Notes: a model not told the origin generated them from the sequence alone. Numbered from the stretch's first letter, positions 21,830 to 31,768 are shown. The stretch: 64,000 nt of DNA from an uncultured Pedobacter sp. (GCA_938008555.1 CALLKE010000093.1:4138-68137); one strand, 5' to 3'. Program-made: numbers and translations.

Positions 21830-22393
21830 TCAATTAACACGTTGAGACCCACCAGTACCATTTTGTGTACTTCCAGGAATATTCCGATCATATTGCAACC
21901 GCTGATTCTTATCCAGATATAGAAACCCAGTTCTACCAGTTTCTTCAACTTTTGCACCATTAACGTATCTCATCTTTTTTGAAGTAAATTGAGTCACGAC
22001 GAAATCACCTTCTTTATCAACCTCAACAAGTTTGTTATTATTAGGCTTAGTCTCAAATGTAACACGCCTATACTCATCCTCATAAACACCTACTGTTTTA
22101 TTAGTGCTTCCAATCTCTTTGCCGTCTCGGTACTTTCTCTTTGTTGTAGAAGAACTAGTAATTAAACTCTCATACGGCTTGTCTCTATTACTAGATCCAC
22201 TACCTGAACCTTGAGACGAAGAGTTAGAGTTACTAGATCCACTACCTTTACCTGGAGGCAAGGATTTAGATCTACCCGAAGTTGAAGCAACTGAAGCTGG
22301 TTGATCTGGAATAATGAGCGCTTCCTTTTGACAGGAAGTTCCTAACAGTGCAACAAGAGAAAGGCCACATGAAACTTTTAAGTAACGATGCAT
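21830..22393 (-). CDS. cassette lipoprotein family member A
   Basis: N-terminus MHRYLKVSCGLSLVALLGTSCQKEALIIPDQPASVASTSG is shared with five neighbours. The rest is an S/G/N-rich core, and the protein ends GGSQRVN. Confidence 0.75.
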   Translation of the reverse strand: MHRYLKVSCGLSLVALLGTSCQKEALIIPDQPASVASTSGRSKSLPPGKGSGSSNSNSSSQGSGSGSSNRDKPYESLITSSSTTKRKYRDGKEIGSTNKTVGVYEDEYRRVTFETKPNNNKLVEVDKEGDFVVTQFTSKKMRYVNGAKVEETGRTGFLYLDKNQRLQYDRNIPGSTQNGTGGSQRVN

Positions 22394-22448
22394 AATTTTG
22401 CGATTAGATTGATTGAAAAAATTAATTAATAAACCGCAATTATACTAG
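22394..22448 (-). promoter_or_regulatory. conserved promoter/5' UTR block of cassette A
   Basis: The minus strand reads CTAGTATAATTGC 43-55 nt upstream of the ATG (TATAAT; TAtaATTG against the Bacteroidota -7 box TAnnTTTG). A conserved leader TTATTAATTAAT...AATCAATCTAAT follows. The same block precedes D, E and F. Confidence 0.5.
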
Positions 22449-22635
22449 CAAAAAAATAAAAAACAATATAATAAGTAGACTAAATATGATATTTTCAATA
22501 AACACCTGTCTATCAGATTAAAAACCAATGAGTGTAATACCAGTATAGCTACTATACCTCTATAAAACTAGAATCATTGTCTACACATTTTTATCCTTGT
22601 TTTCTATTACTGAATAATCGTTCACACTAATCCCT

Positions 22636-22677
22636 AAAAGAATAGCCTCCAGAAATATTTCTGGAGGCTATTCTTTT
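22636..22677 (-). terminator. cassette hairpin terminator H1 (downstream of B)
   Basis: Perfect palindrome AAAAGAATAGCCTCCAGAAA-TA-TTTCTGGAGGCTATTCTTTT (20-bp arms) abutting the stop codon of B. Confidence 0.65.
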
Positions 22678-23171
22678 TAATGAGGATGCTGAGTATTATT
22701 TGTCGCAGCCCCTCTAAAATGCTGATGAGGCTTATTTGTCGTAGCTCCATTAGAAGTTATTTCCACACGAGTCATAGTGTAACTGTTGAATGTACCATGC
22801 TTATCCGCTCTCGACACGCCATTTGTAGTATATCCCTTGACATTGCCCCGACTATCACTAATAAGCAATTCTTCTTGATTGATTTTCTTAAATGAGGATC
22901 CCCTAATTTGAAAACGCGTTGAAGAAGATTGTTGAATATTAACTCCTCCATTCGAACTAGCTGTACTGGCCTCACTAGATATACTCGATTCACTTGATGT
23001 ACTACCCCTCCTTTGAGAAGGAGAAGAGGAGCGAAACGATCCACCACTTTTACTCGAAATTGAGGCAGCTGAAACAGGCTGAGCTGGCATAATAAAGGCT
23101 TCCTTTTGACACGCAGTACCTAATAATGTAATAAGAACAAGACTGCAGAAGAATTTTAAATAACGTTGCAT
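22677..23171 (-). CDS. cassette lipoprotein family member B
   Basis: MQRYLKFFCSLVLITLLGTACQKEAFIMPAQPVSAASISS followed by an S-rich core; ends NNTQHPH. Confidence 0.75.
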   Translation of the reverse strand: MQRYLKFFCSLVLITLLGTACQKEAFIMPAQPVSAASISSKSGGSFRSSSPSQRRGSTSSESSISSEASTASSNGGVNIQQSSSTRFQIRGSSFKKINQEELLISDSRGNVKGYTTNGVSRADKHGTFNSYTMTRVEITSNGATTNKPHQHFRGAATNNTQHPH

Positions 23172-23378
23172 GGTTTTATAAGTTTGGCTAATGGCTGAAT
23201 TAATAAATTAAAAGGATGATAGTTACAGCAATGGATAAGGTATAACCCAGTATCCCACACACATAGAGAGTCATCGAGCTAAACTGGTCTTTTACTTAGC
23301 AAAGTGCCTTCTTAAGATTATAGTATTTCATATGAACACGAGAGCCTAAATATGATCACAACTTAAAAAAACGCTTTT

Positions 23379-23822
23379 TTATTTAGGACGCTGAGGCGTA
23401 CCTACTCCACTTGTTCCTGGGGAGGGTGATCTCACATTCGCTACGTAAACAGACTGCCTACTAGTCATTTTCTTGTCATACTGTGTACCCCTACTATCTT
23501 GATTCAACACTTGCTTAATAGTCGTCTTTTGAAATTCGCCATTTGGATTCCAAACGTAGTTTTTATTTTTCATGATTGTCTCAGATGAAGGTCCATTAGG
23601 CCCGTCTATTATAGTCTTTTTTGTTTTTAAAAAACCTTTAGTAACTCTACCAGATCCGTTGCTTTGCCCTGGAGGAGGTGGTGGTGGTGGAGCACTCGGT
23701 CTAACTGAAGTTGAAGCCATTGGCGCTGACTGACCAGGAGTAACCAGTGTTTCCTTTTGACACGCAGTGAATAGCAGTCCAGTAAAGGCAAGGCTACATG
23801 AAAATTTCAAATAATAGTGCAT
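23379..23822 (-). CDS. cassette lipoprotein family member C
   Basis: MHYYLKFSCSLAFTGLLFTACQKETLVTPGQSAPMASTS followed by a poly-Pro tract; ends GVGTPQRPK. Confidence 0.75.
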   Translation of the reverse strand: MHYYLKFSCSLAFTGLLFTACQKETLVTPGQSAPMASTSVRPSAPPPPPPPGQSNGSGRVTKGFLKTKKTIIDGPNGPSSETIMKNKNYVWNPNGEFQKTTIKQVLNQDSRGTQYDKKMTSRQSVYVANVRSPSPGTSGVGTPQRPK

Positions 23823-23861
23823 AGGTTTTAAGTTTGGTTGATTGAGAAAACTAATCAGTGC

Positions 23862-23903
23862 ATAAGAATAGCCTCAAGAACTAGTTCTTGAGGCTATTCT
23901 TAT
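23862..23903 (-). terminator. cassette hairpin terminator H2 (downstream of D)
   Basis: Perfect palindrome ATAAGAATAGCCTCAAGAAC-TA-GTTCTTGAGGCTATTCTTAT. The arms are homologous to H1. Confidence 0.65.
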
Positions 23904-30357: not shown

Positions 30358-30391
30358 GAATAGCTCTCATATTTCTTGGACCTACCCTTTT
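30358..30391 (-). repeat. degenerate copy of the cassette hairpin downstream of E
   Basis: GAATAGCTCTC-ATATTTCTTGGACCTACCCTTTT aligns with H1 (GAATAGCCTCCAGAAATATTTCTGGAGGCTATTCTTTT). About 5 nt of one arm are deleted and several positions are substituted. Confidence 0.4.
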
Positions 30392-30414
30392 ACTTAGGTG
30401 TCTGAGAATCATTT

Positions 30415-30798
30415 TTAGGAGAGGGGATATAAATCAAAAATTTCATTTAATATATCAGCACTGGATATTCGACGAATACTAGAATTAGACCCACTAGAAT
30501 TAAGCGAAACACTACCAGGCTTTTGAGTATAAACAGTAGCATTTTTATTAGCAGCATTTGTATTAATGGCAATCATGAGCACAGCCATTTTATGAGTACC
30601 ATCAGCTAAGCTCTCTACGGTTTTATTTTTTTTACTTCCATTAGGCCTGCTGGATTTTGAAGGCTTACCACAAGAACTACCCGAATTTGAAACAGCTGGA
30701 ACTGGTTTTTCAGGATTAATCGTTCCCTCTTTTTTACAAGCGGCACCTAATATACCCACAAGAGAGATAGTGCATAAAAATTTGAAACAGTATTGCAT
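30415..30798 (-). CDS. cassette lipoprotein family member E
   Basis: MQYCFKFLCTISLVGILGAACKKEGTINPEKPVPAVSNSGSS is a more diverged member of the same N-terminal family. The 3' end appears frame-shifted relative to the family tail. Confidence 0.65.
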   Translation of the reverse strand: MQYCFKFLCTISLVGILGAACKKEGTINPEKPVPAVSNSGSSCGKPSKSSRPNGSKKNKTVESLADGTHKMAVLMIAINTNAANKNATVYTQKPGSVSLNSSGSNSSIRRISSADILNEIFDLYPLS

Positions 30799-30854
30799 GA
30801 TTTTACAATTAGATTGATTAAAATAAATTCATTAATAAACTGCAATTATACTAG
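30799..30854 (-). promoter_or_regulatory. conserved promoter/5' UTR block of cassette E
   Basis: GCAATTATACTAG at 30842-30854 with the conserved leader (AATTAGATTGATTAAAA...). Confidence 0.5.
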
Positions 30855-30990
30855 TAGTAGAATAAGAATACAAACATAATTAGATGATAAATATGAGACA
30901 ACATAATAAGAATATGATATTAAAATAAGAAACAAATAATTAAGCTATGATACATCTCTACCCTTCGACTAAAAAGGCTTAGAGATGAGA

Positions 30991-31034
30991 GTAAAAGAAT
31001 GGCCCCAAGAATTTTCTTGGGGCCATTCTTTTAC
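30991..31034 (-). terminator. cassette hairpin terminator H3 (attached to a decayed cassette)
   Basis: GTAAAAGAATGGCCCCAAGA-ATTT-TCTTGGGGCCATTCTTTTAC has perfect 20-bp arms homologous to H1 and H2. Confidence 0.6.
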
Positions 31035-31183
31035 TTTGAATTTTGAGGGAGTCCAACTCCAATAGGAGTTGTGGTTCTTTTAATCATCTGAAAGGACAAG
31101 ACAGTTTTTTCAACTCTTGCTTTTTTACGTTGTTCAACTTCGGTTGTGTTTTTAAATGTATGATAGTTTAAAAACACAACCTA
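31031..31183 (-). pseudogene. 3' remnant of a seventh cassette lipoprotein gene
   Basis: The minus-strand frame reads ...MIKRTTTPIGVGLPQNSK* and ends exactly at hairpin H3. The tail matches member C (SGVGTPQRPK*). The frame is closed upstream by a stop at 31181-31183, and no signal peptide or promoter block is present. Confidence 0.5.
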
Positions 31184-31402
31184 TTAAAAATTATACGAGG
31201 CTGAATATAAATTTCCAGCACTTAAGACAAATGCTCTTCTAACCTGATATCCCCCAATGACTAGTGGATGCGAACCCATCTACATATTGTAGATACTTTA
31301 AGATTCACATCACCAAGCTATGATTCTCGCAAAAATTGAATCCAATAGTCTCTAGCCTCATTTAAATTTTAGTAAAAAACAGCTATGCATTTCTTAAAAT
31401 TT

Positions 31403-31768
31403 TCACACGGATACACTAAGTGATTTCTTACCGCTAGAAGTAGGCCTTTGAGTCGTAGTAGTTGAGTAGGTGGTTGATGACTTGTCTTTTTGGGGGCCAA
31501 AATTTCCTTTAGGGTTCTGAAGCATAATCTTTTTAGCACTATCTGTTATATAAGGGGTGGATGATTTTTTTGAGTTCTTCGGATCATTCGACTTTGACCT
31601 ATCACCTCTTGGCTCAGCCGACCTTGCCCTACTACTCTGAGACCCACCCGAAGTTGAAGCAATCGAAGCTGGCTGCTCTGGAGTAATCACTCCTTCCTTT
31701 TTGCAAGCAATAGCTAATAATCCAATAATAGAAAGACCAAATAAAGATTTCAAATAATGATGTTGCAT
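31403..31768 (-). CDS. cassette lipoprotein family member F
   Basis: MQHHYLKSLFGLSIIGLLAIACKKEGVITPEQPASIASTSGGS followed by a basic S/K/T-rich core. Confidence 0.65.
   Translation of the reverse strand: MQHHYLKSLFGLSIIGLLAIACKKEGVITPEQPASIASTSGGSQSSRARSAEPRGDRSKSNDPKNSKKSSTPYITDSAKKIMLQNPKGNFGPQKDKSSTTYSTTTTQRPTSSGKKSLSVSV

Follow-up and report, generated by a model that had tools for sequence, protein, structure and literature searches.

The 64,000-nucleotide (nt) stretch analysed here (GCA_938008555.1 CALLKE010000093.1:4138-68137, from an uncultured Pedobacter sp.; hereafter the window) carries six small minus-strand genes, A to F, between positions 21,830 and 31,768. Comparison of the six supports a true paralogous family of putative lipoproteins, with conserved ends and with cores that diverge much faster than their surroundings. 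The best explanation, to which we give somewhat better than an even chance, is an orphan family of lipid-anchored, disordered proteins that are probably surface-exposed and whose cores diversify at the population level. This estimate is a joint one and covers a new, orphan, lineage-restricted multigene family together with its lipid anchoring, its probable surface location and the non-programmed nature of its variation.

Conserved ends and divergent cores of the A–F family

A preliminary description of this DNA had listed six open reading frames (ORFs) of the family, and all six are confirmed, at 121–189 amino acids (aa):

21830–22393, minus strand: gene A, 187 aa; lipoprotein signal MHRYLKVSCGLSLVALLGTSC followed by QKEA; tail end GSQRVN
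22677–23171, minus strand: gene B, 164 aa; tail NTQHPH; without the 24-nt promoter-like motif given below
23379–23822, minus strand: gene C, 147 aa; tail GTPQRPK; without the promoter-like motif
23903–24472, minus strand: gene D, 189 aa; tail ESQTPK
30415–30798, minus strand: gene E, 127 aa; CKKE subtype
31403–31768, minus strand: gene F, 121 aa; CKKE subtype

Aligned over their first 40 residues, the N-terminal blocks share nine invariant positions (M1, K6, L17, C21, K23, E24, P29, S37 and S39). The DNA identity between A and D in this block, put at about 80% in the preliminary description, measures 78–81%. The similarity reaches upstream of the start codon, so that leader and ~40 codons form a 5′ module of ~190 nt. 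An nhmmer search of the 64 kb with a 196-nt profile of the module returns these six copies and no others (E values of 5e-46 to 5e-56); together with the alignment, it places them as follows:

22266–22455, minus strand: 5′ module of A
23042–23229, minus strand: 5′ module of B
23693–23883, minus strand: 5′ module of C
24344–24537, minus strand: 5′ module of D, comprising the promoter-like motif, an A/T-rich leader and codons 1–43
30669–30861, minus strand: 5′ module of E
31637–31829, minus strand: 5′ module of F

On the N-terminal profile the family members score 79–93 bits, compared with −1.9 bits for GldB, 14.9 bits for the neighbouring 176-aa lipoprotein and 19 bits for a SusD-like protein containing LLGTSCQKE. 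Since the members score far above unrelated lipoproteins, the similarity reflects real paralogy and exceeds what lipoprotein signal peptides share in general, a comparison that the preliminary description had called for. A genome match, L008, was rejected as a family member; it is a SusD-like protein with only the signal peptide in common. The N-termini have the features expected of a type II signal peptide, namely an n-region with K or R, a hydrophobic segment and the sequence [GFLA]-[TAI]-[SA]-C, and the putative lipobox residue Cys21 is invariant in all members.

Beyond the N-terminal block the cores give no significant alignment, either as protein or as DNA, in agreement with the earlier judgement by eye. 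A frameshift relation between cores (tblastx, all frames) was considered and rejected, with one marginal match at an E value of 0.003. The preliminary description had given each protein its own short repeats, and this holds for three of the six. Tandem Repeats Finder (TRF) detects a 42-nt unit in two copies in A (22188–22270), an 18-nt unit in 2.7 copies in B (22956–23003) and a 27-nt unit in 3.3 copies in D (23963–24050; 95% matches, SNASTR units); C has only a run of seven prolines, and TRF detects no tandem repeat in E or F. The mature proteins are basic (isoelectric point 9.6–11.1, net charge +7 to +13), with 48–61% S/T/N/G/P/Q and ~20% hydrophobic residues. A single-sequence AlphaFold2 (AF2) model of A has a mean predicted local distance difference test score (pLDDT) of 46, falling below 50 at residues 1–78, and shows low-to-moderate-confidence beta hairpins at residues 77–169, where ten-residue block means range from 35 to 76. 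The cores are predicted to be largely disordered, followed in some members by a few beta hairpins. The O-glycosylation sequon D-[ST]-[AILVMT] occurs only twice among 12 proteins, so by this measure they do not form a glycan-carrier family.

The proposed convergence at the extreme C-terminus is real and reaches relatives from elsewhere. Most members end in the consensus G-[ST]-x-x-[ST]-Q-[RHTK]-P-[KNQH], in which the last residue is K, N, Q or H, with K in about half of the members. The same in-frame tail closes open frames of 120–190 codons in at least ten members, from two species and dispersed loci, in DNA of ~38% G+C. Two dispersed relatives, P0012 and P0013, keep both the N-terminal block and the tail in front of unrelated 3′ flanks; it follows that the constraint on the tail acts on the protein, and that a conserved terminator does not account for it.

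Three copies depart from this pattern. In E the canonical tail NDSQTPK* lies out of frame; its DSQTPK* (30390–30413) had been taken for a separate degraded copy and is in fact E's own frameshifted tail. F contains TTQRP and then a 12-aa extension, because its stop codon was lost. The second supposed degraded copy, GVGLPQNSK*, stands as the remnant of a seventh gene:

31031–31060, minus strand: seventh family gene, of which only the tail GVGLPQNSK* and a hairpin survive

Debris of the tail of a 511-aa-type gene (..FVLSAGN, ~31208–31245) adjoins this remnant between F and E (30990–31245). Apparently a unit of one 511-type gene and one small lipoprotein gene was duplicated and then decayed.

The frameshifted tail, the lost stop and the copy reduced to its tail would suit a reading in which the genes are decaying or non-functional ORFs, a duplicated leader followed by junk that stays open, as would core substitution ratios near the neutral value of 1 and the lack of database homologues of known function. 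We give this reading next to no credence, given the shared in-frame tail that ends the 120–190-codon frames, the constraint on the N-terminal block and the retention of orthologues at syntenic positions, both described in the next section.

The 5′ modules of A, D, E and F carry a 24-nt motif, CTAGTATAATTGCAACTTATTAAT, in which TATAATTG may be a Bacteroidota −7 promoter element of the TAnnTTTG type. A motif scan of the window gives four matches, with none expected, ~50 nt upstream of the ATG of these genes only:

22425–22448, minus strand: 24-nt motif CTAGTATAATTGCAACTTATTAAT of A
24507–24530, minus strand: 24-nt motif CTAGTATAATTGCAACTTATTAAT of D
30831–30854, minus strand: 24-nt motif CTAGTATAATTGCAACTTATTAAT of E
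31800–31823, minus strand: 24-nt motif CTAGTATAATTGCAACTTATTAAT of F

T-rich runs sit just upstream of this promoter-like motif. B and C retain the proximal leader only. Perfect palindromes of 42–46 nt follow B, D and the seventh-gene remnant only:

22636–22677, minus strand: hairpin after B, homologous to that of D, perfect palindrome
23862–23903, minus strand: terminator-like hairpin after the D stop, perfect palindrome
30990–31035, minus strand: homologous hairpin after the seventh-gene remnant, perfect palindrome

A private promoter and terminator for each gene, as the preliminary description had it, is therefore found in part: the motif in A, D, E and F, the hairpin after B, D and the remnant, and neither in the corresponding places of the rest of the family. 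A sigma-70 promoter/terminator scan was uninformative (55 found, 53 expected), as it does not cover Bacteroidota promoters. C starts 80 nt past the stop of D, directly behind the D hairpin.

Relatives, sister species and strains

The six proteins and their neighbours have no usable match in Pfam, NCBIfam, PADLOC, PHROGs or the PDB sequences, and none in Rfam. At a threshold of E ≤ 0.1 for Pfam and NCBIfam, the sole matches are two insignificant NCBIfam ones for A; one of these, 'LIC_11490', reached 14.9 bits where the cutoff is 100 (E 0.02) and was dismissed as noise. The possibility raised earlier, that the family would match a characterised one, is thus answered in the negative for these databases.

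An exhaustive search of 1.84 billion (1.84e9) representatives with an N-terminal hidden Markov model gave 13 matches at E < 1e-10: the six window proteins, six further members (P0007, P0008 and P0010–P0013) and a repetitive non-member, P0009. All strong clusters come from metagenomes or metagenome-assembled genomes (MAGs); the MAGs are called Pedobacter sp. or Sphingobacteriaceae bacterium, and the only name given to the products is 'hypothetical protein'. The three-part layout recurs in the six further members, which end in QRPN, QRPQ, QRPK, QKPN or QHPK. A true family locus turned up once in 185,579 species genomes and once in the JGI metagenomes. No relatives occur in viral contigs and the flanking genes are housekeeping genes; a phage or prophage origin was rejected on these grounds. 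Searches of the full-text literature gave no description of a variable lipoprotein multigene family in Bacteroidota, in line with the earlier statement that no equivalent was known there.

The search also returned three weaker, more distant small basic lipoproteins (P0016, P0018 and P0015, on L023–L026), with leaders of the form ...LL.TAC[QK]K... and tails ...SSDY or ...SHDY. They are single genes in housekeeping contexts of other metagenomic lineages. Since their leaders are similar and their tails different, the design of a conserved leader, a disordered basic body and a short tail may be wider than the A–F family.

The locus of a sister species (L003–L007) is syntenic with the window. Its order is a 115-aa member, a 521-aa gene, a giant gene, a 142-aa member and a 148-aa member, and the larger genes correspond to these neighbours of A–F:

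24625–30171, minus strand: giant neighbour, ORF of 1848 aa containing a 105-aa beta-sandwich repeat nine times in tandem; in synteny with the family in the window and in the sister species
31972–35149, minus strand: two paralogous genes of 511 and 513 aa (31972–33507 and 33608–35149), each with 2–3 copies of the giant's repeat; syntenic with the 521-aa gene

The giant proteins are 70% identical between the species, and identity of the 511/513-aa proteins with the 521-aa protein is 49–53%. Between positional orthologues, the cores show no significant protein alignment (the best, C/P0010, has an E value of 0.001) and no DNA alignment beyond shuffled controls; they keep composition only. The tight D–C pairing recurs in the sister species, where P0008 and P0010 are separated by a 78-nt gap. 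In both species, members upstream of the giant gene are of the CKKE subtype and those downstream of it are of the CQKE subtype.

Over codons 1–40, the proportion of differing synonymous sites (pS) in paralogue pairs is 0.4–0.7 and that of nonsynonymous sites (pN) 0.14–0.34, giving pN/pS of about 0.3–0.5. The closest pairs are cross-species (F/P0044, pS 0.25 and pN 0.18; D/P0008, 0.38 and 0.16), so the paralogues predate the species split; F is both the positional and the N-terminal orthologue of P0044. As judged from these ratios, the N-terminal block is old and under purifying selection. Gene conversion or concerted evolution as the cause of its conservation was rejected, because synonymous sites are 40–70% diverged and orthologues pair across species. 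Core turnover exceeds point substitution, because the cores are unalignable as DNA while adjacent synonymous divergence is only 0.25–0.4; on this comparison, it must involve indel/repeat turnover or replacement.

P0012 and P0013 are dispersed single copies in housekeeping contexts, from the same samples as the window-type strains. P0013 (L019–L021) lies between an eCIS_core-domain gene and a class I lanthipeptide cluster (LanB, LanC, leader-domain precursor, C39-ABC exporter and an HlyD-like protein). As P0013 is on the opposite strand, this adjacency is probably coincidental.

We compared the strain contigs L001 and L009–L015, which come from other samples and of which L009, L010, L014 and L015 were examined base by base. 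They are 97–99.8% identical and collinear, with the same gene order and lengths. Base by base, no insertions or deletions (indels), homopolymer changes or repeat-number changes were found in the small genes or their promoters; L001 and L011–L013 align without homopolymer or repeat-number gaps, and the 27-nt repeat of D spans an identical length in all contigs with the D core (L001 and L009–L013). Core substitutions between strains, given as nonsynonymous (N) to synonymous (S), are:

A core, 2:1
B core, 1:3
C core, 7:1 and 4:0
D core, 0:1
F core, 7:0

The giant gene has a ratio of nonsynonymous to synonymous substitution rates (dN/dS) of 0.71 between strains.

Strains have recombined with breakpoints in the conserved 5′ block, in one case with an apparent replacement of the whole core. 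Between the window and five independent strain contigs, D has 9 differences in the 120 sites of codons 1–40 and 1 in the 450 sites of its core (Fisher p = 5e-6). The nine differences fall in codons 24–33, which mark a mosaic boundary, and a tract of 4.5% divergence that begins at the 3′ end of the giant gene stops inside the D conserved block. Contig L002 follows L009 at 99.65% identity for 566 nt, as far as codon 39 of D, and has an unrelated core (P0007) thereafter. L002 ends with the family tail and then a hairpin homologous to that of D (89% match). The P0007 core is unique in every database searched. Exact matches of known paralogues to the L002 5′ region are at most 17 nt long, which rules out a k-mer join to a known copy and argues against a simple k-mer chimera. 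Cassette recombination among strains, as proposed in the preliminary description, is hinted at by the different D core of L002 and the mosaic breakpoint in the D block, against which stand collinear, ~98% identical loci with no change of repeat length; its idea that the conserved ends serve as recombination handles we judge to be right.

The window and the 1388-nt contig L001 differ at only three positions, all within 55 nt of the C N-terminal block (23691–23745). These could be a small conversion patch or end errors of a low-coverage (2.7×) contig.

Comparison with known systems and interpretation

Mycoplasma families such as Vlp of M. hyorhinis, Vsp of M. bovis and Vsa of M. pulmonis consist of clustered lipoprotein genes with a conserved 5′ non-coding region and signal peptide, and with divergent, charged, low-complexity mature parts that bear repeats. 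The preliminary description had likened the locus to these families, and the layout bears this out: A–F are clustered lipoprotein genes whose 5′ untranslated region and prolipoprotein signal peptide are conserved, whose mature regions diverge and are repetitive in part, and which are preceded by T-rich runs. The mechanism does not follow. Programmed antigenic or phase variation, in which a dedicated device switches members or resizes repeats within a clone, could draw on this layout and on the one allelic core replacement, but we consider it very improbable. All six genes are co-oriented, no inverted repeats bracket any promoter, and the 64 kb hold no mobile-element, recombinase or transposase gene. 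Nor is there a single expression site, since each gene brings its own start codon and signal peptide. Related strains are stable, with no size variation: no homopolymer or repeat-number difference separates their contigs and the D repeat is constant. In Vlp and Vsp repeats dominate the mature region and vary in number, whereas in A–F they are minor (A, B and D, 2–3.3 copies) and constant among strains; likewise, the on/off device of the Mycoplasma families has no counterpart in the between-strain tract lengths, promoter inverted repeats or recombinases of the window. A–F also lack homology in sequence to the Vlp, Vsp and Vsa proteins, as they match no Pfam or NCBIfam family, and have a conserved C-terminal tail that sets them apart.

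Other systems resemble A–F in part. Borrelia Mlp proteins, encoded on cp32 plasmids, are multicopy small lipoproteins whose leader and ends are more conserved than the centre, and whose diversity is spread by recombination among copies. The likeness to this usual description lies in the multicopy small lipoproteins with conserved leader and ends. There is no Pfam homology, Mlp genes lie on prophage-like plasmids whereas A–F are chromosomal among housekeeping genes, and the A–F cores are unalignable where Mlp centres are merely variable. Precursors of ribosomally synthesized and post-translationally modified peptides share a conserved N-terminal part and a core that changes freely among paralogues; in A–F, however, the conserved part is a predicted lipoprotein signal peptide with a lipobox Cys, the products have 120–190 aa and the main locus lacks modifying enzymes. 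Next to P0013, the lanthipeptide cluster lies on the other strand and comes with a precursor of its own. Polymorphic toxin/immunity arrays would be expected to have recognisable domains, whereas no toxin, immunity, trafficking or defence domains were found in the six proteins with Pfam, NCBIfam and PADLOC.

Since the host is a diderm bacterium, unlike Mycoplasma, surface display of A–F would need an export step. After the lipobox Cys, residue +2 is Q or K, +3 is K and +4 is E, the last two invariant or nearly so; position +5 holds A, G, T or M, except in P0011/P0044 (KKEE). The tested minimal lipoprotein export signal is K-(D/E)2, and KD alone is insufficient in Capnocytophaga canimorsus (PMC5080379). 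The resemblance noted in the preliminary description is thus partial, with K at +3 and E at +4 in place and one acidic residue where K-(D/E)2 needs two. Bacteroidota lipoproteins exported by this signal (Lauber et al. 2016, PMC5080379) have in common with A–F the type II signal peptide and, behind the Cys, Q/K at +2 and K at +3 before an acidic +4 residue; the known ones are folded enzymes or binding proteins, whereas A–F are predicted to be disordered, cassette-like and 100–170 aa long. CQKE (in full CQKET) also opens the mature part of L008, the SusD-like protein, whose MAG is labelled Sphingobacterium thalpophilum. SusD proteins are surface lipoproteins. Surface display of A–F is plausible on its sequence features and, because the export signal is only partly matched, unproven.

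The incomplete signal leads to the main rival, in which the proteins are disordered tethers facing the periplasm or anchored in the inner leaflet, with a functional stalk and tail (docking to a partner or the cell wall) and a core that is a neutrally drifting entropic spacer, so that its variability would carry no adaptive significance. Several results fit it: composition and charge are conserved without sequence conservation, pooled core dN/dS is ~1, the ends are under purifying selection and dispersed single copies sit in housekeeping contexts. We nonetheless think it unlikely, as core divergence outpaces that of adjacent synonymous sites and one core was replaced outright, which goes beyond neutral point drift; E and F survive without the tail; and the cluster neighbours are adhesin-like repeat proteins. 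Cross-linking of the Braun (Lpp) type is unlikely, because it needs a C-terminal Lys, found in only about half of the members, and a coiled coil, whereas the A–F body is predicted to be disordered or beta and not helical.

In the preferred reading, of lipid-anchored and probably surface-exposed proteins, each gene would consist of three parts. The 5′ module, under purifying selection, would provide the A/T-rich leader (with the promoter-like motif in four of the six), the type II signal peptide, the lipidated Cys, the C-[Q/K]-K-E signature and a 15-residue P/S/A-rich stalk. The core would be free in sequence as long as its basic, S/T/N/G/P/Q-rich character is kept, and the short conserved C-terminal tail would form the third part. 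The products, with a mature length of 100–170 aa, would be lipid-anchored and would reach the outer membrane and probably the cell surface, where they could make up a layer of variable, positively charged 'bristles' next to the giant Ig-like-repeat protein. Diversity might pay off against phages, grazers or competitors. Variation would arise at the population level, by duplication, decay, indel/repeat turnover and homologous recombination at the conserved ends, with no programmed on/off or shuffling switch. The best reading of the cores is that they are either under diversifying selection or unconstrained.

Several points weigh against this interpretation. Strains are ~98% identical with identical gene order and lengths. 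Pooled core substitutions (17 N : 6 S, p = 0.70) are compatible with neutrality, so diversifying selection is not demonstrated; for C and F together the count is 14 N : 1 S (p = 0.09). The core replacement is seen on a single 935-nt contig from one sequencing run, SRR26192711. Most members have one acidic residue compared with two in the signal tested in C. canimorsus, which may not be the rule in Sphingobacteriia. Lipid anchoring is predicted, and we infer lipidation and surface exposure from sequence. Since P0012 and P0013 are not beside the giant gene, the link to it is not obligatory. Finally, part of the cluster may be decaying, because E and F lost the canonical tail.

A stronger version of the preferred reading is a recombination-driven variable surface coat, in which disordered bristles are swapped as alleles among strains via the conserved 5′ and 3′ ends and the tail ...SQRPK is a new docking or sorting tag. 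We regard it as distinctly improbable. If true, the tail might, for example, tie the bristle to the giant Ig-like-repeat protein or to an export/processing machine, and the system would be an analogue of mollicute antigenic variation in a diderm non-pathogen, with a different mechanism.

Variable lipoprotein multigene families are textbook features of wall-less pathogens and spirochaetes, and known surface variation in Bacteroidota proceeds mainly via invertible promoters and shufflons. The A–F genes would represent such a family in a diderm environmental Bacteroidota lineage, without a programmed switch. They suggest a different route, in which ends conserved for biogenesis double as recombination handles and the middle is a disposable disordered segment. 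Two small, sharply defined candidate motifs emerge, one made up of the 20 residues behind the putatively lipidated Cys, the other being the C-terminal Q-R-P-K/N tail. For now the practical use of the family is limited, as the hosts are uncultured and rare.

Host and neighbouring genes

The window is chromosomal Bacteroidota DNA, with genes for GldB, Lnt, NadE, ValRS, TilS, an LptD-like protein, a resistance–nodulation–division (RND) efflux operon and pyruvate carboxylase; the host is an uncultured Sphingobacteriales-type bacterium, which is present in the samples ERZ28653944, SRR29476920 and SRR13208891. With its internal repeats used as the alignment, AF2 models the 105-aa repeat of the giant protein as a confident beta sandwich (pLDDT 84), for which Foldseek returns only generic Ig-like, macroglobulin or FN3-like matches. 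The giant and 511/513-aa proteins have no Pfam, NCBIfam or PDB sequence match and no recognisable type IX secretion system C-terminal domain. Between strains, the last 100 codons of the giant gene carry 14 N : 2 S substitutions.

In the sister species, the next gene after the two downstream family members encodes a membrane protease of 160 aa that is Rce1-like (CPBP-type; L003 11906–12388, L004 6296–6778). The equivalent place in the window is taken by the 176-aa lipoprotein (20816–21346), which has no Pfam match. On the plus strand at 35582–45053, the RND efflux operon encodes an outer-membrane factor and a membrane-fusion protein, then two tandem AcrB-type pumps of 1090 and 1083 aa. Lastly, an ORF of more than 4953 aa on the minus strand (49138–63999) runs off the window end and would encode the second giant protein of the neighbourhood.

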